Sequence record: PQ374922.1
Source of the DNA: a phage
Direction: 5' to 3' (one strand)
Length of the DNA: 64,000 nt
Shown in pieces: positions 1-40,217 of this stretch. A program made the translations under genes and the position numbers. The notes beneath the pieces are model-generated. The model was given only the letters and a program-made list of their open reading frames with translations, had not been told where the DNA came from and did not search any database. Each line of letters begins with the position of its first letter. Positions within the stretch are counted from its first letter, which is position 1.

Positions 1-3000
1 ATGGCTAATAAACCAACACAGCCTGTTTTCCCTCTCGGTCTGGTGGCTGAAGAGCAGTCTACTTTGGCTGGTGTCGTCAACACGGGTACGATTGAGCATG
101 GACCAGATGCTGTCCTGACTTTACCCGAGGGTAATGCCAGCGCAGGACTCCCGTCTTCCGTTCGCTACAATGCCGACTCCGACGAATTTGAGGGCTTCTA
201 TGAAAATGGTGGATGGTTGCCGCTGGGTGGCGGTGGTATCCGCTGGGAAGTCCTTCCGCATGCCTCTACGACAACGCTCACTGAAGGGCGAGGCTATCTC
301 ATTAATAATACCACAGGGGCATCTACAGTGGTTCTCCCTTCCCCTACGCGTATTGGGGATTCCGTTACTATTTGTGATGCTTATGGGAAATTTGCCACTT
401 ACCCATTGACCGTGTCTCCTTCTGGAAATAATTTGTATGGCTCCACTGAAGACATGGCTATAACAACTGATAACGTATCAGCAACGTTCACTTGGTCTGG
501 ACCTGAACAAGGTTGGATTATTACATCCGGCGTCGGTCTTGGCCAAGGTCGCGTCTACAGTCGTGAAATCTTTACAAAAATTTTGGCGTCTGAAACAAGT
601 ACTGTCGCTCTCAATACCCCACCAACAATCGTGGACGTGTATGCTGACGGAAAACGTCTTGCGGAATCCAAATATTCACTAGATGGGAATGTAATCACTT
701 TCAGCCCTTCTTTGCCAGCCAACACAGAACTTCAGGTGATTGAATATACTCCTATTCAATTGGGTAATGGCGGTGGTTCTAGTTCTTCTACGATTACCTG
801 GGTCTATAATGGGGGTTCAGCGATTGGCGGTGAAACCGAAATCACGTTGGACGTCGTTGTTGATGATGTTCCGGCCATTGATATAAACGGAAGTCGCCAG
901 TATAAAAATCTGGGATTCACATTCGATCCATTAACCAGTAAAATCACTCTTGCGCAAGAACTGGAACCAGAGGATGAAGTTGTTGTGATTATAAATGGGA
1001 CACCAAACATTTATAACCAAATCGATCGTTCTTTACAGGAAGTTGCTCGTGCTGCTAACGTTAAAAATAGTGAAGTAATTCTTAGCACTGATATCACTCA
1101 ATTCTTGAATGACAAGAAAGTTGTTTATGATGTTACCGAACAGAAGGCTTATGGCCTACCTTCTTTGCCAACTAACGTTTGTATTGGTTCAGTATCTAAT
1201 GGTCAGCTTACTTATAATCCAGGCAGCATTACCGTAGATTTGATTCCATTGCCTAACTCCGTCGAACTGTTAAGCAATAATTTGATGTCATCTACAGGGT
1301 CTAGCTTCGTTAAGCATGGGGATAAGACTGTAGGGGAAATCTTGGATACCTTATCCAGTGTTCAACTACACTACTCTTCCTTTGCCTCTCTTACGGAGTT
1401 ACATGACTATATCATTAACAATAACCTTACTAACGTGGATATTATTTTTGATAAGGTATTAACTTTAGGTCCAGGCTCTGGTGGGTTAGGAACTCTGTTT
1501 GTACTCAGTAACATGAAGCACCTTGGTATCCACAACCTGGTTATAGATGACACTCTCCTCTATTCTGGTTCGTTTGATTTAACCCGTGTATTCGACCTTG
1601 CTAACATAGGTAATTTATACATGGAGGTAGATGCTACCAGTACCCTGGAATATGTTGGTGATGATAAAAGGGGGCTAACCCCATTACGTTTAAATGGCTG
1701 CGATAATTTTACGTTTATTGGTAAAACTACACGCTGTTATCAAGGTTATGAATGTACTAATGTAAAAAATCTCCATGCTCGTAGTGTGAATAATGATACT
1801 CGCTATCCACATCTTCTTGGTAATGTTGGTACAGTTGATATCCACACAGTTAATAATGGTTGTCGTCGTGACTTCTTCCTGACGAATAATTGTGCTGGGG
1901 GGAAGATTACAGTTGATGCCGTGGATACACAGCAGGGTACACCAATCAAAATGTACTTCTATAATGGGAACATGGACAACCAAATAAGTAACCTGACAAT
2001 TAATTATAAGTACCGTAGCACAGGTCGTTACACACTTCCGTACCGAGTAGCACCAATATGGTTGGATTGGGGCTGGGACAGCACCATAACGGAGTCTATG
2101 GTTGCTGGGCTGATGCGTAACATAACCATCATTTATGATGTCGTCGGGGGGAATTGGGGGAGTGTTATCGGCACAACAAAGCTGATTGATGAGTCTGTAG
2201 CAGACAACAACCCACGTGGCTATGGCTATTCAAATATTGTGATCACCGGACGCATAGAATTGGGGGGTGGGGACTCCAATAATCACGCATGGTTCTTTAA
2301 CTTCAACTCTAATGATAACTGGGTATCAGGAGATACTATTAATGGGTTTATCTGTCGTGACCTGGTGGTCCGGAAGCTGAATGGTGGTGATGTATACGTC
2401 AACACCAATCAGCTTACAGGTGCAGTGACAAATTATGGAGGAGTTAAATTTGAAGGTGTTAGTGCACCAGAAGCTAAGTTAACAGCTACTGATTACAGTA
2501 AAGTAAAATTTGCTAATTGCACGTTTTCTGATTTTGCATCTTTAGGTGCAGCAACTGATTCAAGCAAATGTGCTACGGGTTCCTTGCTGTTTATTAAAGC
2601 TGCTGGAAACCCAGGAAAATTCAAACTTGGAACGGTTAGTACATATCGTAACGTGAGCCTGTGGACCGTTGATGTTGTCGCTAACTCCCCTCTCTCTGGG
2701 GTATCGTCGGCATGGCATGGGCGTTTACAGGGAACACTGGCGATGGCTACAACTCCAGCAGCAAGCACAATGGAAGGTTCAGTACAAAGCTCGTTCACAA
2801 AAGGAACAGCAGCTACGCCGACTATATCAGTCGATGCTAGTGGTAACGTGTTCCTTAACTTTGATGGATGGGACGCACTAGAGGCTAACGTGGCTGTAAA
2901 TGTTAAAATGCAGTATGACGAATACAGTGGCGGAGGCAACAAAACTGTACGTGGTATGTTAAGCAAAGCTAATGGTGGGTTTAGTCTGAACCTTAGTTAA
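1..3000 (+). CDS. Tailspike protein with long N-terminal extension, shared anchor module and beta-rich C-terminal receptor-binding region; may be 5'-truncated by window edge
   Basis: 999-aa ORF starting at window position 1; internal module SEVILSTDITQFLNDKKVVYDVTEQKAYGLPSLPTNV..QLTYNPGSITVDLIPLP is paralogous to modules in the ORFs at 6468 and 9357; GC-hairpin terminator follows. Confidence 0.8.
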   Translation: MANKPTQPVFPLGLVAEEQSTLAGVVNTGTIEHGPDAVLTLPEGNASAGLPSSVRYNADSDEFEGFYENGGWLPLGGGGIRWEVLPHASTTTLTEGRGYLINNTTGASTVVLPSPTRIGDSVTICDAYGKFATYPLTVSPSGNNLYGSTEDMAITTDNVSATFTWSGPEQGWIITSGVGLGQGRVYSREIFTKILASETSTVALNTPPTIVDVYADGKRLAESKYSLDGNVITFSPSLPANTELQVIEYTPIQLGNGGGSSSSTITWVYNGGSAIGGETEITLDVVVDDVPAIDINGSRQYKNLGFTFDPLTSKITLAQELEPEDEVVVIINGTPNIYNQIDRSLQEVARAANVKNSEVILSTDITQFLNDKKVVYDVTEQKAYGLPSLPTNVCIGSVSNGQLTYNPGSITVDLIPLPNSVELLSNNLMSSTGSSFVKHGDKTVGEILDTLSSVQLHYSSFASLTELHDYIINNNLTNVDIIFDKVLTLGPGSGGLGTLFVLSNMKHLGIHNLVIDDTLLYSGSFDLTRVFDLANIGNLYMEVDATSTLEYVGDDKRGLTPLRLNGCDNFTFIGKTTRCYQGYECTNVKNLHARSVNNDTRYPHLLGNVGTVDIHTVNNGCRRDFFLTNNCAGGKITVDAVDTQQGTPIKMYFYNGNMDNQISNLTINYKYRSTGRYTLPYRVAPIWLDWGWDSTITESMVAGLMRNITIIYDVVGGNWGSVIGTTKLIDESVADNNPRGYGYSNIVITGRIELGGGDSNNHAWFFNFNSNDNWVSGDTINGFICRDLVVRKLNGGDVYVNTNQLTGAVTNYGGVKFEGVSAPEAKLTATDYSKVKFANCTFSDFASLGAATDSSKCATGSLLFIKAAGNPGKFKLGTVSTYRNVSLWTVDVVANSPLSGVSSAWHGRLQGTLAMATTPAASTMEGSVQSSFTKGTAATPTISVDASGNVFLNFDGWDALEANVAVNVKMQYDEYSGGGNKTVRGMLSKANGGFSLNLS

Positions 3001-3004
3001 TAAA

Positions 3005-3030
3005 ATTCCCCTCTTCGGAGGGGATCTTGT
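3005..3030 (+). terminator. Rho-independent terminator-like hairpin (cccctc-ttcg-gagggg) followed by T-rich tract
   Basis: Perfect 6-bp GC stem with UUCG-type loop directly after the stop at 3000. Confidence 0.6.
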
Positions 3031-3063
3031 TATACCTTTGTTCATAAATTTGATTAGTTCAGA

Positions 3064-3074
3064 CTAAATACCCC
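3064..3074 (+). promoter_or_regulatory. Late-promoter-like motif CTAAATACCCC
   Basis: Recurring box about 30 nt upstream of late-gene ATGs; here followed by complementary TATGGGGTA near the RBS. Confidence 0.6.
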
Positions 3075-3103
3075 ATATTGGACATCCTTTATGGGGTATT
3101 ATC

Positions 3104-6100
3104 ATGATTTCTCAATTCAATCAACCACGCGGCTCCACTTCCATAGAAGTTAACAAACAATCTATCGCTCGAAATTTCGGTGTCAAAGAAGACGAAGTCG
3201 TTTATTTCACTGCTGGTATTGATCTCAGTGGATTTAAAGTAATTTATGATGAGTCTACCCAACGGGCCTATTCTCTTCCTTCAGGTATTGTTTCAGGAAC
3301 GACTGCGATAAGTCTGAACGGACAAGCCATCCTCACTCATTCCGCTGGTTCTGTTGACCTCGGAGAATTAGCCGTATCCCGTGAGGAATATGTTACATTG
3401 CCTGGTTCATTTGATACAGGTGTAACTGTTAATTGTAAGAATGAATTAGTTGTCTTTACCGAGGGCAAGTACCGCTGGGATGGTGAATTACCTAAAGAAG
3501 TTCCTGCTGGTTCGACTCCTGAATCGTCTGGCGGCATTGGTGATGGGAAATGGGTCGGTGTTGGGGATGTGGCACTGCGTGGACAGATTTCAGACCCCGA
3601 GGGTGCAACAAAATATCCTGAACTACAAATGGCTCGCTGGCGTGATAATGGCGATCCGCGTGGATGGGGTGTTAAAGGTGATGCTGTACATGATGATACA
3701 GCAGCATTAACGAGCGTATTAAACGACACACCGGTTGGACAAAAGATTAATGGCAATGGGAAGACATATAAGGTCACATCCCTGCCTGACATTAGTAGAT
3801 TCGTCAATACTCGTTTTGTATATGAACGTATTCCTGGTCAGCCGCTTTATTATGCCTCTGAAGAATTTGTTCAGGGTGAGCTGTTCAAAATAACGGACAC
3901 CCCTTATTACAATGCGTGGCCACAAGATAAAGCGTTCGTTTACGACGATGTTATTTACTGTCCGTTCATGGCTAGTGATAGACATGGGGTTAGCAGGCTG
4001 CATGTATCCTGGGTTCGTTCAGGGGATGACGGACAGACCTGGACAACCCCGGAGTGGTTAACCGACCTACATCCTGACTATCCGACAGTTAACTACCACT
4101 GCATGAGTATGGGGGTGATGCGTAATCGTCTCTTTGCGATGATTGAGACCCGTACATTGGCATCTAACGCACTGGTAACCTGTGAGTTGTGGGATCGCCC
4201 CATGTCCCGTAACTACCATCCGACAGGCGGTATCACTAAAGCCGCCAACCAGCCTGTGGCTGTAATTACTATCCCTGAACACGGTCTTTTTGCTGGGGAT
4301 TTTGTTAACTTCTCAAACTCTGGGGTGACTGGAGTTTCAGGGAATATGACTGTAACTTCAGTTATTGACCGCAACACTTTCACAGTTACCACGCCAAATC
4401 AACAGGCGTTTGACCAAAATAATTCTGCCAGCCGTTGGCATATGGGTACATCGTTCCATGAGTCGCCGTGGCGTAAAACCAGCCTTGGGTTAATCCCAAT
4501 GGTGACTGAAGTTCATAGTTTTACCGCCATCAATAATGATTCATTCATGATGGGGTATCACCAAGGTGATGTTGCTCCTCGTGAAGTTGGCATGTTGTAT
4601 TTCCCGGATGCGTTTAATAACCCGGGTTTATACCAAAAACGTCGTATTCCTGCTGATTATGAACCTGATGCGGCAGAGCCTTGCGTTAAATATTTTGATG
4701 GCGTTCTTTATGTCTTAACTCGTGGTACTCGTTCAGATCGTTTGGGGAGTTCGTTGCATCGTAGTCATGATTTGGGCATGACTTGGGAATCACTCAGATT
4801 TCCTAATAATGTTCACCACTCTACGTTGCCGTTCGCTAAAGTCGGTAATGAACTAATCATTTTCGCCACAGAGCGTGCTGATAACGAATGGGAAGCCAAT
4901 GTACCTGATCAACGATACTTTACTTCTTATCCACGAACGTTCTACACGCGAGTGAACCTAGACACCTGGAACCTGGATAATACTCAGTGGGTGAATATCA
5001 CTGACCAGATTTATCAGGGCGGTATTGTCAACTCTGGAGTCGGTGTTGGCTCAGTGGTTGTTAAGGATAGTTATATCTATTACATGTTCGGTGGGGAAGA
5101 CCATCTGAACCCCTGGACATATGGAGATAACTCAGCGAAAGACCCATTCAAATCAGATGGTCATCCCTCAGATTTGTATTGCTACAAAATGAAGATTGGC
5201 CCAGACAATCGTGTTTCCAGGGATTTCAGATATGGTGCTGTACCTGACAGAGCTGTTCCCGTGTTTTTTGATACGAATGGGGTTCGCACTGTCCCTGCGC
5301 CAATGGAATTTACAGGAGATTTGGGTTTAGGTCATGTGACCCTTAGGGCCAGCACCAGTAATAACATTCGCTCTGAAATGCTACTGGAAGGCGAGTATGG
5401 GTTTATTGGGAAATCTGTACCTACTAATAACCCAGCAGGACAGCGCACCATATTTTGCGGTGGAGAAGGAACCAGTTCTTCTACTGGTGCACAGATTACG
5501 CTTTACGGTGCGAATAACACAGCTTCTCGCAGGATAGTTTACAACGGAGCTGAGCACCTGTTCCAGACTGCTGATGTTAAGCCTTATAACGATAACGCTA
5601 TTGCTCTTGGTGGGCCCAGCAACCGTTTCACCACTGCATACCTCGGAAGCAACCCTATTGTTACTTCTAACGGAGAGAAGAAAACGGAGCCGGTAGTTTT
5701 TGATGATGCTTTCCTGGATGCCTGGGGTGACGTTCACTACATCATGTACCAGTGGTTAGATGCTGTTCAACTGAAAGGCAATGAAGCTCGTATTCACTTC
5801 GGGGTTATTGCTCAGCAAATTCGTGATGTATTCATTGCACATGGTCTGATGGACGAAAACAGTACGGATTGTCGTTATGCCGTTCTGTGCTATGACAAGT
5901 ATCCACGGATGACCGATATGGTATTTTCGCACAATGAAATCGTTGAACACACTGACGAGGAGGGTAATGTCACCACCACGGAAGAGCCTGTATTCACTGA
6001 GGTGGTTATTCACGAAGAGGGTGAGGAGTGGGGCGTGCGGCCTGACGGAATTTTCTTTGCTGAAGCTGCTTATCAGCGAAGAAAACTGGAAAGAATCGAA

Positions 6101-18829: not shown

Positions 18830-19525
18830 ATGGCCAGACCATTTGAAAATTACTTCTACCATGATTCATTGATGAAATACATCAATCTGTTTGCCACCAT
18901 TATGTCTGATCTGAAGGTGAACACAGAGCGTGGTCTTATGGAAGTCCCATTACACATGGCCATCGGGAGACGCAATGACCTCAACAGGAACGTGCCATCC
19001 AACATGCTCCCATTTGCGACCTTCTCTTTTGGTCAGTTTGAGATCAACAAACAGGTGACGAAGACGTACCACAATCGACAATCGACACCAACAGCAGGGG
19101 CGAAGCAGCGAATCCCCCTGATTATCGATTTTGAGTACAATATCCGAACCAAGAAATTAGTTGAGATGTTACAGGTGCTAGAGCAGGTTTATTCGGTATT
19201 CACTCCCTCTCTAGACTGTGGTATCAAGGACAACGATACACTACAGCAAGACCAGAAGATCAAGATCCAACTGGTCAGCCACCAGATGTCCGATAACTGG
19301 GAAGGGGATGCTTCTGATTCACCACACGTCGACTGCTCCTTCATGTTCCAGCTGAGCGGCTTCATCTACGGGTATGACTATTGGGTGGACAACGAGGGAG
19401 GCGGGGATCCTAACGGGATCAAAGAGATAATTATCGAAATGTCTAATGATTTGAAAACACCGTGGACGGAACTGCCGGAGTGGTTCCGTGTTGACAAAGA
19501 CGGTGTACATCATCCTGGAGATTGA
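18830..19525 (+). CDS. Tail completion and sheath stabiliser protein, gp15-like
   Basis: 231 aa; segment KKLVEMLQVLEQVYSVFTPSL resembles the T4 gp15 region FQIVEQILPYFQP; synteny. Confidence 0.65.
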   Translation: MARPFENYFYHDSLMKYINLFATIMSDLKVNTERGLMEVPLHMAIGRRNDLNRNVPSNMLPFATFSFGQFEINKQVTKTYHNRQSTPTAGAKQRIPLIIDFEYNIRTKKLVEMLQVLEQVYSVFTPSLDCGIKDNDTLQQDQKIKIQLVSHQMSDNWEGDASDSPHVDCSFMFQLSGFIYGYDYWVDNEGGGDPNGIKEIIIEMSNDLKTPWTELPEWFRVDKDGVHHPGD

Positions 19526-19527
19526 TT

Positions 19528-20235
19528 ATGAGTGCTATGTCAGAACGCCTATTATCCACCCTCAGTGCTATCCAAGCGCGGGATGAGGTCGCTCAAGAAG
19601 TCATGGAGAAGACCTCGCCTATGGCCGGAAAAGATTACGATCCGGATACAGGCGAATGGTTGGGTGAAAAGCCTGCGGGGTATGAGCCTGTGGTGTTTCC
19701 TCCTTCATTGGACCCAGAAGAGCTGAAGCCCAAGGAGTCTAAGGTTCCAGACTTCGAAGACACTGATGCCACCACCGACTACAAACGCATCCGTGACACG
19801 ACTTATGCCATGCAGGAAGCCACGATGTTCATGATGGGACAGGCAGCCAAACTTGCGACGACGACTGAAGCACCCCGTGCCTTCACAGTCTTCAAAGAGT
19901 TGGGTGAACTCATGCGCGGTCTGAACAAAGACCTGATGGAGAACCAGAAAACTATCAAGGCGGTCACGGGCGACAGAGAGCCACCTCCTGGAGACGAAAC
20001 AACCGTCGAGGTCACCACGTCCCCTGATGGCACAACCACGGTCAACGTCGGTAAACAGGCCAGGTCTTCCCGTGATCTACTGAAGACCATCGAAGACGCT
20101 CGTAAACGTGCTGAAGAACGTACTGCAGCGAAAGCTGCGTCCAAAGGACCTGAACCCGAAGAAGATGTAATCGACGTTCAGGCCGAGCCGCAGCCGAAGG
20201 AAGAAGGTGAAGACAATGGCGTATCAGAAGCGTGA
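19528..20235 (+). CDS. Terminase small subunit, gp16-like
   Basis: Region APRAFTVFKELGELMRGLNKDLMENQKTIK resembles the T4 gp16 core; lies immediately upstream of the large terminase. Confidence 0.7.
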   Translation: MSAMSERLLSTLSAIQARDEVAQEVMEKTSPMAGKDYDPDTGEWLGEKPAGYEPVVFPPSLDPEELKPKESKVPDFEDTDATTDYKRIRDTTYAMQEATMFMMGQAAKLATTTEAPRAFTVFKELGELMRGLNKDLMENQKTIKAVTGDREPPPGDETTVEVTTSPDGTTTVNVGKQARSSRDLLKTIEDARKRAEERTAAKAASKGPEPEEDVIDVQAEPQPKEEGEDNGVSEA

Positions 20236-22426
20236 TGTAGAATACGCCCCACTCAAGACGGGGTTTAAGACAGAAGACGTCAGACTGCGTATGGACCAAA
20301 CGTTCATGCGCAAGCCGTCTGTGCGTGCTCCTCGTGTGGAGTTGATGCTAACCGACGAACAAGAATCGGAGTTCGTCGAGTGCGCGATGGACGCCCATTA
20401 CTTCGCCGCCAACTACTACAAGATCACGACCATCGATAAAGGCTTCATCCTCTTTGACATGCACGATTACCAGAAGCAGTTGTTCCATGACTTCCAGGAC
20501 TATCGATTCAATGCGGTCGTCCAGGCTCGTCAGTCTGGGAAATGTGTAAAAGGTGACACGCTTGTCACAGTTTACGATACTCTCAGCCAAGAGCAGTTGC
20601 TCCTGACCATAGGGGAGCTTCACAGCCGCTTCGAGGACGTCAATCACGCTGTGCCGCTGAATACCATTGGCAATCATGACAAGTTCGTGGACAGCCGCTT
20701 CGGCAAGCGTTACTTTGTGCAATCCGATAGTGGCTGGGTTCCGGTTATCGCAGCGCATAAGACGAAGAAATATGCGGAATTCGTTATTGTGACTGTTACT
20801 GGGCGGCGAATTAACGTGGCCGACGAACATATATTCTTCACTCCGGAAATGAAGGAGATATTTGCCAAAGACCTGAATGCTGGGTCATACATCATGACGT
20901 CAGAAGGTTCAGAAGAAATCCGTGAGGTTTGGCAGACTGGTGAGACGCATCACATGTATGACCTACAGGTGAAATCTAGTGATCAGCGCTACTACACCAA
21001 CGGCTTCCTCAGCCACAACACGACTGTCGTGGCAGCGTTCCTGCTCTGGTATGCGATGTTCCACTCCGACAAAGAGATCGCAGTACTGGCGAACAAAGAG
21101 AAGCAGGCGATTGAAATCCTAGATCGTATTCGCAAAGCATATCAAGATTTGCCATTCTTCCTCCAACAGGGTTGTGAGAAGTTCGGTTCCACGCTGATCG
21201 AGTTCGAAAACGGATCAAAGATCTACGCCTATGCGACATCTTCCGACTCCATCCGTGGTCGATCTGTATCGCTCCTGTATGTGGACGAAGTGGCGTTCAT
21301 TGAAAACGACTTTGAATTCTGGGAGTCTACATTCCCGGCGATTGCATCTGCAGAGACTTCACGTTGTATTCTGACCAGTACGCCGAAAGGTCAGCGCGGG
21401 TTGTTCTACGACATCGTCACCAAGGCGAACCCAGAACACCCACAATACAACGACTTCAAACTCACAGAGGTCCCATGGTATCGTGTTCCAACGTACACCA
21501 AAGATCCAGACTGGGAATCCAAACAAAGGGCGAAGCTGGGTGATGCACGTTTCGATCAAGAATTTGGCATTAAGTTCCGTGGTTCTGTGGGATCACTGAT
21601 ACCTGCCAAGTGTCTGGACAAGATGACCTCGAAGCTGTATCAGGAGCCGAACGAGTTCACCAAGATTTATCACGACTACGATCCTAAGCGCATCTATATG
21701 GGTATCGCAGATACAGGCAAGGGTGTCGAAGGGGATTATTCTGTGCTGACCATTATCGACATCACAGACTATCCTCACAAGATCGCAGCCAAGTATCGAA
21801 ATAACACGATACCTCCAATGATGTACGCGTACACAATCGCCGATATGGGTGAGAAGTATGGAACGTGCCCGATGCTAGTCGAGACCAACAACGACGTGGG
21901 TGGTCAGGTAATCACAATTCTATACCAGGAAATTGAATATCCAGAGATCATCTTCACCACAACAGATACCAAGGGTACAGGCAAGAGAATCGGTGGTCGC
22001 CGCCCTGAGCCTGGTATCAATACCAACAAGAAGGTGCGCACAAACGGCTGTGCCAACCTGAAAGCCCTGATTGAACGTGAAATGCTGGTGATAGATGACC
22101 AGGACACGATAGATGAACTCAGTACATTCGTATGGACTGGAACAAGGTATGAAGCCGATGATGGTTGTCATGATGACTGTGTAATGCCCCTCGTGTTGTA
22201 TGCATGGGCGGTGAAACAAGAATGGTTTAGTGATCTCACCAATTCAAATATCTCTGTGGACATGAGAGGACGGTTGTCTGCGATGGAAGAATCACAGATG
22301 CTACCATTTGGGGGTATGATGTCGACACCAGATCCTCACTCTGTGGAGAACATCCCAGGGTTCGGTGGAATTCAGGTTTATGATGAACGCTCTGGTATGT
22401 CTATGGAAGAATGGCTGAGACGGTGA
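20216..22426 (+). CDS. Terminase large subunit, gp17-like, interrupted by a mini-intein in the Walker A motif
   Basis: Walker A halves ARQSGK / TTVVAA flank the insert; Walker B LLYVDEVAF; nuclease-region similarity to T4 gp17 (..YHDDLVM.. equivalent CHDDCVM). Confidence 0.9.
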   Translation: MAYQKRDVEYAPLKTGFKTEDVRLRMDQTFMRKPSVRAPRVELMLTDEQESEFVECAMDAHYFAANYYKITTIDKGFILFDMHDYQKQLFHDFQDYRFNAVVQARQSGKCVKGDTLVTVYDTLSQEQLLLTIGELHSRFEDVNHAVPLNTIGNHDKFVDSRFGKRYFVQSDSGWVPVIAAHKTKKYAEFVIVTVTGRRINVADEHIFFTPEMKEIFAKDLNAGSYIMTSEGSEEIREVWQTGETHHMYDLQVKSSDQRYYTNGFLSHNTTVVAAFLLWYAMFHSDKEIAVLANKEKQAIEILDRIRKAYQDLPFFLQQGCEKFGSTLIEFENGSKIYAYATSSDSIRGRSVSLLYVDEVAFIENDFEFWESTFPAIASAETSRCILTSTPKGQRGLFYDIVTKANPEHPQYNDFKLTEVPWYRVPTYTKDPDWESKQRAKLGDARFDQEFGIKFRGSVGSLIPAKCLDKMTSKLYQEPNEFTKIYHDYDPKRIYMGIADTGKGVEGDYSVLTIIDITDYPHKIAAKYRNNTIPPMMYAYTIADMGEKYGTCPMLVETNNDVGGQVITILYQEIEYPEIIFTTTDTKGTGKRIGGRRPEPGINTNKKVRTNGCANLKALIEREMLVIDDQDTIDELSTFVWTGTRYEADDGCHDDCVMPLVLYAWAVKQEWFSDLTNSNISVDMRGRLSAMEESQMLPFGGMMSTPDPHSVENIPGFGGIQVYDERSGMSMEEWLRR
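20543..21019 (+). mobile_element. Mini-intein (159 aa, no homing-endonuclease domain) in the terminase large subunit P-loop
   Basis: Starts with Cys (CVKGDTLV), ends with ..GFLSHN, +1 residue Thr of the GKT Walker A; extein halves join to the canonical SRQxGKT motif. Confidence 0.85.
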
Positions 22427-35875: not shown

Positions 35876-36283
35876 TCAGTGCTCCCGCGCCGGAAGAACT
35901 CCCACTGGTTCGATGCCATCCAACAGCAGGGAGTTCACACCCACATTACTCAGTCTGATCAAGATCGTTCCCCCTGGGTTAACTTCAAAGATACTCATCC
36001 CATTTCCAACCGCGTCGTTGTTAACGAACACACCCTGAGTTGCGATTCGTACTGGTTTATCTGAGTCATTCATGATCTTGAACGTCACGATTATATCTGA
36101 TGTTGTATCCAGTCGCCCAACCATGTGTTGCTTCAGCTTGGCATGGAATGATGGATTAAAAGTGATAATGATGCTGTTATTCTGAGAGTAATAAATACTT
36201 GCTGATAGGTATGGAATCTTCCCTTCATCGCCATGCCGCAGGAGAGGAATTGTGGTCTTCCAGTATGGCTTGAGGGTGCTCAT
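35876..36283 (-). CDS. Hypothetical protein on minus strand (about 135 aa; start uncertain)
   Basis: Only the C-terminal part of the 271-codon antisense ORF looks protein-like; convergent with the gene ending 35875; weak RBS. Confidence 0.3.
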   Translation of the reverse strand: MSTLKPYWKTTIPLLRHGDEGKIPYLSASIYYSQNNSIIITFNPSFHAKLKQHMVGRLDTTSDIIVTFKIMNDSDKPVRIATQGVFVNNDAVGNGMSIFEVNPGGTILIRLSNVGVNSLLLDGIEPVGVLPAREH

Positions 36284-36554
36284 GTTCTCATCAAAGCAAC
36301 CTAAAGGTACGAGCTTCTGGAAGGGCTGGAACTCTTGCACGATGATGTCCAGCATACCCTTGTTACAAGTGGGAACGCTGGCCGACAACGTCACAGGTAC
36401 AGTGCGCACTTCTGGGTTCCAGAGTTCGGAAACAGAAATTATTGGCGTGACAAAGATGCGACAGCTCGTAAACAAGAGCATCGAGCATGCCAACAACAAT
36501 CTACTGATCCCGCGCATCAGGGTCACAAAATATCTCCACAGCAAAGGTGCTATT

Positions 36555-37067
36555 ATGTCCAACGTACAATTTAAGAACGAAAACCCTAATTTCGCGGCGT
36601 CCGATAAGTGGCGTCTGACTATCGGAGACCTTGTACTCCTAACCCGTAACATCCACGACTTCAGTATACCAGGGGTGTACTCCGAAGGCATCGATGGTCC
36701 GTCTCCTGGTGACGTGTTGGTTTCTATACCTTCAGAGCGTTTAACCTATGATCCCGTCGTATTTACTTTCGTTATAGACGAGGACTGGAAATCATGGTTA
36801 CAGATCCACCAATGGATTACCAGCAACGTCGGCAAGGATTTGCCTGTCAGCAAGGACATTACCATTGAATTGCTGGATAACCTCAACCGACCGATTGGCC
36901 TCACTCTCGTGCTGGAGGAAGCCCGCCCGACTGCTTTGGACAACGTACTGGTGGACGTAGACGCAGCTGTACCTCAGCTGGTGACGACAGTGACCTTCAA
37001 GTTCCAACAGCTGGTTCCACTATCTGGTGGGAAGGCGATTGATTCTAATCCGCGAAATGCGGTATAA
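36555..37067 (+). CDS. Tail-tube-fold paralogue (gp19-like), possibly a baseplate tube component such as gp48/gp54
   Basis: C-terminal ITIELLDNLNRPIGLTLVLEEARPTALDNVLVDVDAAVPQLVTTVTFKFQ aligns by eye with the tube protein at 25283; start chosen at ATG 36555. Confidence 0.6.
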   Translation: MSNVQFKNENPNFAASDKWRLTIGDLVLLTRNIHDFSIPGVYSEGIDGPSPGDVLVSIPSERLTYDPVVFTFVIDEDWKSWLQIHQWITSNVGKDLPVSKDITIELLDNLNRPIGLTLVLEEARPTALDNVLVDVDAAVPQLVTTVTFKFQQLVPLSGGKAIDSNPRNAV

Positions 37068-37565: not shown

Positions 37566-38312
37566 ATGGCATCCCTCCAAGATCTACGCAAGCTGAACGA
37601 CTTCGAAAACCGTCATTACACATTCCAGCAATACGAACTTCCTTACAAGGAACTGGAGTGTGTTACGACGGAGAATGGTCGTCATTACGTTTCACCGTCT
37701 GGTGTAAAACTGACATCCGTCACGACTATGCTGGGACGCACTGGAGATCATGAATGGCTTGAGTCTTGGAGGAAGAAGCTGGGCGCAGAGGCCGCTGACC
37801 TTGAGACCATGCGCTGTGCTGACCGAGGGGAGAAGCTGCACCTTGCGTGTGAACTGTATCTAAAGAACCGCCCAATGAAAGAAGTGTTGGAAGCGGCTGG
37901 CGAATACATGTTCATGTTCAAGCAGCTGTTCCCTTACCTGAACAAGATGACAAAGATCTATGCTCAGGAGATCCCATTATATAGCGAGGTGCTTGGTCTT
38001 GCAGGTCGTGTAGACCTTATCGGGGTTTATGAGGGTAAACCTGCTGTCATCGACTTCAAGACATCGAACACCATGAAGACGCGGGGCATGATCGAGGATT
38101 ACAGTATCCAGCTATGCTTATATTCGGTCATGTTCCAGCAGATGTTCGGCGTCAAGATCACCCGCCTCATCAACGTGATCGCCAACGAGTCTTCCCCTCT
38201 ACCAACCGTCATTGAGTTCAACCGTGATGACATTCTGACAAAGATGTTTGAGCGTGTTCGTCTGTATCATCGCATGGATAAAGAACAAAACGGAGTCTGG
38301 CCGGATCACTAA
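37566..38312 (+). CDS. PD-(D/E)xK superfamily nuclease (exonuclease-like)
   Basis: Motifs GRVDLIGVY (Asp) and PAVIDFKTS (D-x-K) in beta-strand context. Confidence 0.55.
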   Translation: MASLQDLRKLNDFENRHYTFQQYELPYKELECVTTENGRHYVSPSGVKLTSVTTMLGRTGDHEWLESWRKKLGAEAADLETMRCADRGEKLHLACELYLKNRPMKEVLEAAGEYMFMFKQLFPYLNKMTKIYAQEIPLYSEVLGLAGRVDLIGVYEGKPAVIDFKTSNTMKTRGMIEDYSIQLCLYSVMFQQMFGVKITRLINVIANESSPLPTVIEFNRDDILTKMFERVRLYHRMDKEQNGVWPDH

Positions 38313-38340: not shown

Positions 38341-39849
38341 ATGGTAGACATTCAGATTGTTAAGGTTAACGAAGTCCGCATGCGTTGCATCGCAGATCTT
38401 TCTATCAGGGAAGAACTTAATGACTACTTCAAATTCGAAGACCCGAACTTCGTTCCCAACCCCTTTTCTAAATGGGACGGGGTTGTCCGCCTATTTACCA
38501 AGTCATCTGGTCTAATCGATATCGGTCTGCTGTTTGAGGTATTTAAGTTCTGTAAGAACAACGGATACACCATTGAACTGGATCCGGCACTGAAGTACAT
38601 TCAGGACATCCCAGATGAAGAAATCCGTGACTTCATCGACAGTCTGCATCCAAAGATCCGCACCGAAAATCACGAATATATCGATGCCGAGACTCGTGAC
38701 TACCAGTACGACACCATCGCCAAGGCTATGCGTCAAACCAGATGCGTCTGTGAACTGGCTACGAGTGCCGGTAAGTCCTTTATTCTGTATGTCATGGCGC
38801 GGTACTACAGGCGGCGCAGAGAAGCTCTCGAAAGTCCTCTGAAGACGCTTATCGTGGTGCCGTCAATCCACCTAGTCACTCAGCTGTACGACAACTTCGA
38901 AGAGTATGCACATGGCAGTGATTGGAAGCCCGTTGTTAACACCCAGCTGATTTTTGAGGGCGCGACAAAGGATATCAGCAAACCAATCGTCATCAGTACA
39001 TGGCAAGGCATTCAAGACCAGCCGAAGGAATGGTTCCACCAGTTCGGTGATATCGTGGTGGATGAAGTGCACACCTCCAAGTCTGAGAAACTGTCTTACA
39101 TCCTAAACAACTGCATCTATGCCGACCAGCGCCTGGGGGTTACAGGTACGCTGGCGAATACCAAAGTTGCCGGGCTTCAGGTGGTGGCTCACTTCGGGGC
39201 GTACCATAAGATCATCACGGCTCGCGATCTTATCAATCTCGGGTACGCCACTGACATCAAAGTGAAGATGATCCAGCTGAAGCACACTCCGGCGGATGCT
39301 GTTGGTCTGGACGGGGATTATTCCAAGGAAATAGAATACCTTATCACACACCAGTCCCGCAACGAACTGATCGCCAAGATGGCACTGAATCTGAAAGGAA
39401 ACGTGGCCATCATGTTCGAACGTATTGATGGTCACATGATGGTCGTGTATGATATGCTGAGCGCGGTCAAGCCCAACGTGTTTGTCATCAACGGGGAAGT
39501 AAAGATCGAAGACCGCCGCCGCATACAGAAAGCGATGGAGGATGGAGAGGACATCACCCTGTTGGCATCATACGGGACAATGCAGCAGGGAGTGTCGATC
39601 AAGAAGCTACACCACCTTGTACTGGCACACCCGAGCAAGTCATATATCCGCGTCATACAGACATTGGGTCGTCTGATGCGTCAGCACTCCTCTAAGGACG
39701 TCGCGTGGATATGGGACTTAGTGGATGATGCATCGTACAACGCCAGCACGAACCACGCTCTTAGGCACTCTCACGAGCGTTACAAGTTTTACCTGGCAGA
39801 GCGCCACCCTGTGGAGTTCATGAAGGTGGCGCTGGGTAATCACGATTAA
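38341..39849 (+). CDS. uvsW: UvsW-like SF2 DNA/RNA helicase
   Basis: Walker A ELATSAGKS, DEVH box, VISTWQGIQDQPKEWFHQFG, C-terminal LASYGTMQQGVSIKKLHHLVLAHPSKS all matching the T4 UvsW pattern. Confidence 0.9.
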   Translation: MVDIQIVKVNEVRMRCIADLSIREELNDYFKFEDPNFVPNPFSKWDGVVRLFTKSSGLIDIGLLFEVFKFCKNNGYTIELDPALKYIQDIPDEEIRDFIDSLHPKIRTENHEYIDAETRDYQYDTIAKAMRQTRCVCELATSAGKSFILYVMARYYRRRREALESPLKTLIVVPSIHLVTQLYDNFEEYAHGSDWKPVVNTQLIFEGATKDISKPIVISTWQGIQDQPKEWFHQFGDIVVDEVHTSKSEKLSYILNNCIYADQRLGVTGTLANTKVAGLQVVAHFGAYHKIITARDLINLGYATDIKVKMIQLKHTPADAVGLDGDYSKEIEYLITHQSRNELIAKMALNLKGNVAIMFERIDGHMMVVYDMLSAVKPNVFVINGEVKIEDRRRIQKAMEDGEDITLLASYGTMQQGVSIKKLHHLVLAHPSKSYIRVIQTLGRLMRQHSSKDVAWIWDLVDDASYNASTNHALRHSHERYKFYLAERHPVEFMKVALGNHD

Positions 39850-40217
39850 TCTTGATTCACATAGGCGGGGGTGGCCTCGCCTTCATCAGTTACTACACCG
39901 AACAATTTGTCCAGAGAAGCCAGACATTGTGCGTTCAGGTGTTCACTGATCGTATCCTTCAGCATTTGTTCGCTGTTCAATTGGAATGGCAGAACCTTCG
40001 CTTCGATGCCGTTATCAAACGTCACAACGCCAACATACAGACCAACTTTCAGGCCTGTCATCAAGCCAAGGGGGACAAATCGCGGCTCCGATGGTAAGTT
40101 CTTGTCTGACGCCAGCTGTGTCAGATAAACTGGGGTGCCTGTGATAAATTGACCTGTGGTGAGGTTGGCGTCTGGCTTACTACACCCGACTGCGTATAAT
40201 CCTACGAACTGTTTCAT
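39846..40217 (-). CDS. Hypothetical protein (123 aa), possibly exported or lipid-anchored
   Basis: Minus strand, convergent with uvsW; N-terminus MKQFVGLYAVGCSK is weakly signal or lipobox-like. Confidence 0.45.
   Translation of the reverse strand: MKQFVGLYAVGCSKPDANLTTGQFITGTPVYLTQLASDKNLPSEPRFVPLGLMTGLKVGLYVGVVTFDNGIEAKVLPFQLNSEQMLKDTISEHLNAQCLASLDKLFGVVTDEGEATPAYVNQD

Follow-up and report, generated by a model that had tools for sequence, protein, structure and literature searches.

How can a phage package its DNA when the ATP-binding loop of its packaging motor is interrupted by 159 residues? This question is raised by the gene for the large terminase subunit (terL) in the phage record PQ374922.1, of which a stretch of 64,000 nucleotides, called the window in the following, was analysed as one strand. 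An initial annotation, made from the letters alone, had proposed that a mini-intein splits the Walker A P-loop of this terminase. Our analysis leads to the same answer, i.e. the insert is very probably a self-splicing class-1 mini-intein, the splicing being the predicted part of this statement. The terL is 99.5% identical to that of Escherichia phage LHE287 and approximately 98% to that of Agtrevirus AV101, and the window phage is, judged by its sequence, an Agtrevirus-like, ViI-like member of the Ackermannviridae. The coordinates of all features are compiled in Table 1.

The insertion site in the large terminase gene

Terminase and insert lie in a single uninterrupted frame in the open reading frame (ORF) list of the window (20207..22426, + strand), which encodes 739 aa from a GTG codon. 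The ATG at 20216 (MAYQKRD..., 736 aa), 9 nt downstream of the GTG at 20207, is the start in homologs and in phage LHE287, the record of which annotates terL as 2211 nt. The precursor matched terminase large subunit families of PHROGs, and a phmmer search against solved structures returned gp17 of T4 and RB49 (E=2e-64) with both domains covered. In silico removal of the 159 residues raised the Terminase_6N score from 63.5 to 80.8 bits, the match now reaching profile position 4, and the spliced sequence was recognized by the Pfam profiles Terminase_6N (E=1.5e-22) and Terminase_6C (E=6.8e-7). We identify the host protein as a T4-type large terminase (gp17; Terminase_6N plus Terminase_6C) in which Walker A is restored once the insert is removed. 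The C-extein contains the remainder of the ATPase and the RNaseH-like nuclease domain.

The translation of 20543-21019 reads CVKGDTLV...GFLSHN (159 aa) and stands between ...VVQARQSGK and TTVVAAFLLW, which bears out the Cys at its beginning, the His-Asn at its end and the Thr at position +1 that the initial annotation had named. In the HMMER alignment with T4 gp17, the precursor falls into two blocks: query residues 31-112 correspond to gp17 residues 85-166, ending in SRQLGK, and the query from 271/272 onward corresponds to gp17 from 166/167 (KTTVVA). The break between K112 and T272 of the query is equivalent to K166/T167 of gp17 inside the Walker A sequence SRQLGK/TTVVA (the slash marks the insertion point here and below). 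In this alignment the insert splits Walker A exactly between the invariant Lys and Thr, and Thr+1 doubles as Walker A Thr and splice nucleophile. The proposed coordinates were exact on both the translation and the gp17 alignment, and the T4 motif SRQxGKT named in the initial annotation was also correct; gp17 has SRQLGKT and the present terminase ARQSGK/T.

Intein-free terminases were expected to have a precise gap at this site, and such a gap was seen not only in gp17. The closest intein-free cultured homolog, TerL of Vibrio phage D528 (580 aa, i.e. 739 minus 159), reads CRQSGK/TTVVAAFLLWYALF across the site, and the metagenomic TerL sequences P0015-P0019 (575-581 aa), which are 73-85% identical to the exteins, read ARQSGK/TTVVAAF. 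We further searched phage genomes with a junction query, a 159-aa spliced sequence spanning the site. It aligned with Ackermannviridae genomes in two pieces over 954 nt (477 nt extein plus 477 nt insert) and with approximately 2,200 other T4-like phage records in one piece of 471-474 nt. Presence and absence of the intein is, in the sequences compared, polymorphic among near relatives. The same query against phage records gave one terL locus per genome, and within the window neither a second terL nor a second copy of the intein was found.

Table 1. Features of the terL region in the window (positions refer to the 64,000-nt stretch).
Feature	Positions	Strand	Remarks
terS (gp16-like small terminase)	19522..20235	+	overlaps terL start
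terL, intein-containing large terminase precursor, 736 aa	20216..22426	+	Terminase_6N/6C, PHROG terminase large subunit families, T4 gp17 E=2.2e-64
N-extein, 109 aa, ends ...NAVVQARQSGK (first half of Walker A)	20216..20542	+	
Recombination patch across the N-splice junction	20500..20922	+	96% nt identity to Kuttervirus SE14, 74% to Agtrevirus Ag3
Predicted class-1 mini-intein, 159 aa, Cys1 ... His158-Asn159	20543..21019	+	
Cys1 codon, block A nucleophile	20543..20545	+	kept in all N-terminally complete relatives
Helical excursion in the model, intein residues ~23-47, lowest model confidence (pLDDT ~78)	20609..20683	+	
Block B, N91-V-A93-D94-E-H96	20813..20830	+	His conserved
Block F core, M138-Y-D140-L-Q-V	20954..20971	+	
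Block G, G-F-L-S157-H158-N159	21002..21019	+	
C-extein, 468 aa, starts at Thr+1 (21020-21022)	21020..22423	+	

Profiles, fold and conserved residues of the insert

The insert was matched by the Pfam family Intein_splicing (PF14890; E=1.3e-8, 35.3 bits with a gathering threshold of 35.8) and by the NCBIfam model of the intein N-terminal splicing region (TIGR01445; residues 1-100, 25.8 bits with a cutoff of 24.5), while precomputed PF14890 matches are present on orthologs. A homolog search with the intein alone matched two proteins only; the full precursor was used as query instead. The AlphaFold2 model of the insert, built from a 21-sequence alignment, has a mean predicted local distance difference test score (pLDDT) of 93.5 and a predicted template modelling score (pTM) of 0.87, and the modelled domain is all-beta, apart from a short stretch at residues 23-47 that makes a helical excursion. 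When this model was compared with the PDB by Foldseek, 70 matches at E<=1e-3 were obtained, and the best 50 matches listed were all inteins or closely related HINT (BIL) domains. Among them are VidaL (E=2.9e-11, TMt 0.83), the NpuDnaB, SspDnaB and gp41-1 inteins and the TFIIB mini-intein (TM 0.83). According to the model, the insert folds as a HINT domain, and this fold and the profile matches together show that the similarity to inteins did not arise by chance.

Among the 21 relatives, down to 31% identity, the residues A93, D94, H96, D140, S157, H158 and N159 are invariant. Cys1 occurs in every N-terminally complete sequence, and position +1 is Thr, in one case Ser. The assignment to class 1 follows from Cys1 together with an Asp rather than a Cys in block F.

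In agreement with the initial annotation, which had regarded the insert as too short for a homing-endonuclease domain, the model consists of a single domain with approximately 40 aa between blocks B and F, and no endonuclease family (LAGLIDADG, HNH or other) was found in the insert with Pfam, NCBIfam or PHROGs. The last of these also has no family matching the intein alone. The insert is a mini-intein without homing endonuclease, and it is contiguous in one frame, i.e. a naturally split arrangement is absent from the window. An antisense ORF of 160 aa (20348..20830) was considered as a possible endonuclease, because antisense endonucleases are known from actinophage inteins, but it was rejected; it has no family match and spans the extein/intein boundary.

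Predicted splicing and its necessity

Our proposal is as follows. The precursor would be unable to bind or hydrolyse ATP, because 159 residues part the GK/T loop. After translation, Cys1 would undergo the N-S acyl shift, and Thr+1, which is the Thr of Walker A, would attack the thioester through its hydroxyl and give the branched intermediate. Cyclisation of Asn159, assisted by His158, would free the intein, and the O-N shift would restore a normal peptide bond, resulting in a 577-aa TerL with ARQSGKTTVVAAF. The junction peptide of the spliced TerL would contain ...NAVVQARQSGKTTVVAAF....

Several points weigh against this proposal. Searches of the accessible literature turned up no experimental splicing data for the window intein or its Ackermannviridae orthologs. 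The PF14890 score of the insert alone stays 0.5 bit under the gathering threshold. Moreover, the usual Thr of block B (B7 of TxxH) is replaced by Ala93, which is invariant across the intein family (V/C-A-D-x-H), and in block F the enterobacterial clade has Gln (DQRYYT) where distant relatives have His (DHRYYT). The block-B Ala and the block-F Gln could alter the splicing rate. In the family alignment, Ala93 is a trait of the family and no lesion particular to the window intein; B7 varies among active inteins, and substitutions in both block B and block F are tolerated in known inteins.

Taken further, a splicing reaction that is deduced, a block B without the canonical Thr and a marginally low Pfam score might indicate a decayed intein or a HINT-like domain that does not splice and is kept as part of the mature terminase. 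We find this hardly credible. A P-loop cannot work when 159 aa separate the Lys from the Thr of Walker A, and there is no second terL, while the residues that matter for splicing only (Cys1, His96, Asp140, His158, Asn159 and Thr+1) are invariant over deep divergence. Furthermore, the split homologs of the phages PhiW-14 and Atu_ph07, which are described below, are sensible only if their halves splice.

A further argument for a splicing intein comes from the viability of the phages that carry it. The full-length intein was found in at least 285 phage records, many of which name the bacterial strain of growth, and we take these to mean isolated, propagating phages. In P-loop NTPases, function is lost when 159 residues part the Lys from the Thr of the loop. 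Since the P-loop is interrupted, only a single terL exists per genome and the at least 285 carrying phages are viable, TerL must splice, and from the sequences we strongly infer this also for the window intein. Likewise, with the P-loop physically broken and no more than one terL in a genome, it is sound to infer that the packaging ATPase would be active only after splicing, as already proposed in the initial annotation.

The intein is under purifying selection. The ratio of nonsynonymous to synonymous substitution rates (dN/dS, Nei-Gojobori) of the intein was 0.04-0.22 in every informative pair, a range similar to that of the exteins. Conservation of this kind, kept without an endonuclease across hundreds of genomes, would also fit a conditional splicing switch, in which the splicing rate would follow a signal tied to the stage of infection (redox, temperature, nucleotide or partner binding) and so set the moment at which the packaging motor becomes active. 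An intein in the catalytic P-loop lets splicing gate activity, and a possible selective retention of P-loop inteins has been argued for in the literature (PMC4760082, PMC5050341). However, failure to splice in an essential gene would be lethal, which accounts for purifying selection just as well, and the close intein-free alleles indicate that the intein is dispensable for this phage type. No sign of a sensor was seen in the present data, and the sole Cys is Cys1, which leaves no intramolecular disulfide trap within the intein. Hence, we regard a regulatory switch as quite improbable.

Distribution and previous descriptions

The intein occurs in Kuttervirus, Agtrevirus, Limestonevirus, Taipeivirus and Miltonvirus as well as in Vapseptimavirus, where it has a 20-aa insertion; in Vibrio phage VAP7 this insertion falls in the loop at intein residues ~23-47. 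It must be mentioned that the Ackermannviridae TerL intein is not new, it has been annotated and published since 2013. The genome announcements of the Salmonella phages Maynard and Marshall from that year state that an intein, with Hint domain and intein splice site, breaks up their large terminase, which differs in this from that of T4 (PMC3868846, PMC3853055), and the announcements of Mooltan and Klebsiella phage Magnus (2019) likewise report an interruption of TerL by an intein (PMC6486243, PMC6763660). The GenBank record of Mooltan (MH688040) carries a mat_peptide 'intein' at exactly homologous coordinates, and the protein database nr holds a 159-aa entry 'intein [Salmonella phage Maynard/Marshall]'. 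These four announcements give the interruption of TerL alone, without P-loop position, allele diversity or splicing activity.

The elements of Maynard (KF669654), Marshall (KF669653), Mooltan (MH688040) and Magnus (MN045230) are orthologous to the window intein, with the same gene, K/T point and length of 159 aa. The allele of Maynard, Marshall and Mooltan is 76% identical to the window intein, and that of Kuttervirus SE14 96%. The window contains the other one of two approximately 76%-identical alleles, and has it in a hybrid form.

Recombination between intein alleles

The intein and extein histories disagree in the pairwise comparisons. Compared with Ag3 from the same genus, the C-extein of the window is 97.4% identical at the aa and 90.7% at the nt level, and the intein only 74.8% (aa). 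With Kuttervirus SE14, a member of another subfamily, the relation is reversed: the C-extein is 86.1% (aa) and 76.2% (nt) identical, and the intein 96.2% (aa), with a dS of 0.34 in the intein versus more than 1 in the exteins. The same kind of discrepancy exists inside Kuttervirus, where Mooltan and SE14 share 98.7% of the C-extein and 100% of the N-extein residues and 78.6% of those of the intein. In a sliding-window profile, the SE14-like tract extends from approximately 43-75 nt upstream of the intein to approximately nt 370-380 of its 477 nt. The flanks of the patch listed in Table 1 are 77-84% identical to SE14 and 90-91% to Ag3 at the nt level. With optimised breakpoints, informative sites were divided between SE14 and Ag3 in a ratio of 102:7 inside 20500..20922, in favour of SE14, and of 71:306 outside, in favour of Ag3; the resulting Fisher p value of ~1e-48 is inflated by the post hoc choice of breakpoints but still overwhelming. 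The window intein reads as a hybrid, in which the first three quarters plus 43 nt of the N-extein are of the SE14 type and the last ~100 nt, comprising blocks F and G, of the Agtrevirus type. The patch at 20500-20922 is possibly a detail that has not yet been reported.

We read the tract as the result of ordinary homologous recombination between co-infecting phages rather than of homing, because it mismatches the bounds of the intein and ends in the most conserved sequence. A compositional anomaly, which would point to a recent acquisition of the intein, was looked for and not seen, the GC content being 0.47-0.51 in intein and extein alike. With the GC content of the extein and without an endonuclease, the mini-intein would be a long-resident element of enterobacterial Ackermannviridae that is inherited vertically, with alleles still shuffled between genera by homologous recombination. 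The crossovers of such exchanges would fall in two conserved parts, the N-extein and the region of blocks F and G.

The strong incongruence between intein and extein, with a patch 96% identical to a phage of another subfamily, and the side-by-side occurrence of intein-plus and intein-minus alleles among close relatives could also be explained by an intein that is still mobile. A free-standing homing endonuclease would then act in trans on intein-free or heterologous terL, and 20500-20922 would be the co-conversion tract. Ackermannviridae encode several free-standing HNH and GIY-YIG endonucleases (PMC3853055). In Dickeya phage Ds25CZ (Limestonevirus, MN813053; L009 809-1687), a 292-aa ORF with a NUMOD3 motif is situated between terS and terL. 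NUMOD3 represents a homing-endonuclease-type DNA-binding module. This ORF is absent from the window, SE14, Ag3, K751 and 3M. In the window no homing endonuclease lies beside terL, where terS overlaps its start and the tail sheath gene comes next, and in SE14 no endonuclease gene flanks terL either. Moreover, the tract begins in the extein, 43 nt ahead of the intein, and stops ~100 nt short of the intein's 3' end, which is a pattern expected of ordinary homologous recombination between co-infecting phages. We therefore consider homing in trans as unlikely, although with somewhat more in its favour than a regulatory switch, and keep ordinary recombination as the preferred explanation.

Some other ORFs of the window were inspected as well. 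The opposite-strand ORFs at 35876-36691 and 39846-40217 gave DUF7424 or no match. An ORF of the PD-(D/E)XK nuclease family (37566-38312, + strand) adjoins uvsW/uvsY-type genes, and the DUF7424 ORF (35876-36691, - strand) is located near to it; both are 'hypothetical' in LHE287. No tRNA genes were found in the window.

The wider family, split homologs and other insertions in terL

The same intein family is present at the same site in the distant metagenomic T4-like terminases P0050, P0065 and P0067. As a separate observation, the metagenomic TerL sequences P0050, P0057, P0065 and P0078 have, besides the one in the P-loop, a second intein at SIRG(K/R)S/C...SHN/C, directly before the Walker B sequence LYxDE (within the parentheses the slash denotes alternative residues), which makes two inteins within one terminase ATPase domain.

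Two cultured phages have terL in two parts. In Delftia phage PhiW-14 (GQ357915; L007 1925-2392 plus 2441-4198), terL consists of two ORFs in the same frame. The first encodes the N-extein ending in ...TARQMGK and a 43-aa N-terminal intein part (IntN), the second a 121-aa C-terminal part (IntC) ending in SHN/TTTVAAF. What separates them is a real gene boundary, made up of a double stop (TGA-TAA), a GC-rich hairpin accompanied by a T-run, the sequence GGAG and an ATG. The PhiW-14 terL looks like a naturally, and atypically, split intein at the same P-loop site. In GenBank only the second ORF is annotated, as gp17, so that this coding sequence (CDS) starts inside the intein. In the Agrobacterium jumbo phage Atu_ph07 (MF403008; L008 1983-2354 plus 2354-4174), terL is annotated as two CDS; these differ in frame, and their stop and start codons overlap in the sequence TGATG, again a real gene boundary. 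The first encodes the N-extein ending in ...CGRQLGK plus a 42-aa IntN starting with Ser, and the second a 152-aa IntC ending in SHN/TTVAAAY followed by the C-extein. This is a second candidate for a split TerL intein in a cultured phage. The splits of both phages match the 'unusual' split intein of a metagenomic terminase with a C-part of 122 residues described by Dassa et al. (2009; PMC2677866), and their break coincides with the loop of lowest confidence in the model of the window intein (residues ~23-47).

GIY-YIG matches (PF01541) in related TerL sequences were considered as remains of an ancestral intein endonuclease and rejected, as the divergence begins ~200 residues downstream of the intein. 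In the terL ORFs P0052, P0061, P0066 (Vibrio phage VP-1), P0076, P0083 (Vibrio phage K469), P0087 and P0090, a normal TerL runs up to FDQE(Y/F)xC and is then followed by GIY-YIG endonuclease-like sequence instead of the nuclease domain. The insertion is found in both intein-containing (VP-1) and intein-free (K469) terL, and the comparison suggests a separate intron or free-standing endonuclease insertion, which splits terL downstream of the ATPase domain.

Comparison with other terminase and P-loop inteins

Terminases are common intein hosts (Dassa et al., 2009; PMC2677866), and the preference of inteins for P-loops is a theme of Novikova et al. (2016; PMC4760082). Insertion between Lys and Thr was described as the 'classic' P-loop position for TerL1-a of mycobacteriophages (Kelley et al., 2016; PMC5050341). 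The inteins TerL1-a, DnaB-b, MCM-a and RFC-a occupy this same site between the Walker A Lys and a nucleophilic Thr/Ser (PMC5050341, PMC4760082), and the classic P-loop inteins share class-1 chemistry and Thr+1 with the window intein. However, the host of TerL1-a belongs to Terminase_1, whereas that of the window intein belongs to Terminase_6 (T4 gp17 type), and the only TerL6 site found in mycobacteriophages in the survey by Kelley et al. was the C-motif (site f; PMC5050341). Furthermore, TerL1 inteins have been shown to splice, while the window intein is predicted to do so.

Regarding sequence and structure, the window intein resembles atypically split inteins. The best PDB match by sequence is the Cat intein (CatC; E=0.0065) with the shared motif ...YYTNGI/FxSHN (here the slash separates alternative residues), and the best one by structure is VidaL with the scores given above. 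Both CatC and VidaL are atypically split, and the consensus Cat intein was derived from TerL split inteins. GOS-TerL and AceL-TerL also reside in phage large terminases (PMC2677866), as does the window intein. Atypically split TerL inteins break in the loop after block A, resulting in a short IntN and a long IntC, as is the case in the homologs from PhiW-14 and Atu_ph07. In contrast, the window intein is contiguous and predicted to splice in cis, whereas GOS-TerL, AceL-TerL and Cat are split. Moreover, these three have Cys at +1 (PMC11766414) and may occupy a different site in terL. A site shared by the window intein with AceL-TerL and GOS-TerL was considered and is not proposed here, since the literature gives Cys+1 for these two.

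A homologous mini-intein of approximately 33% identity is situated in the Walker A region of the T4-type TerL of the Campylobacter phages vB_CcoM-IBB_35 and CP20 (Eucampyvirinae; CP20 stretch L006 78-2273). The Campylobacter phage TerL intein was cited as precedent in the Maynard announcement. However, it is inserted three residues upstream of the K/T point (PRQ/SSKST, Ser+1). Because the CP20 site differs from that in the window, at least two distinct intein insertion points exist in the Walker A loop of T4-type TerL.

Implications

The TerL intein of the window phage adds one more case to the well-documented preference of inteins for the Lys/Thr point of P-loops. Its practical weight lies mostly in annotation. 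In the examined records, terL is mostly given as plain 'terminase large subunit' or 'hypothetical protein', and among the records listed only Mooltan carried an intein feature. Since TerL is a favoured phylogenetic marker and the intein recombines, the intein should be removed before trees are built.

The interest in this system would rise only if splicing were regulated or if the exchange of alleles were driven by an endonuclease. It is conceivable, though rather unlikely, that the Ackermannviridae TerL intein is no frozen passenger but has alleles that are still swapped between genera and subfamilies, perhaps with the help of a free-standing homing endonuclease that works in trans at the P-loop region of terL; the NUMOD3 ORF of Limestonevirus would be a candidate. 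If this were true, exchange by a trans-acting endonuclease would make these coliphages and Salmonella phages a tractable system for 'collaborative' intein homing.

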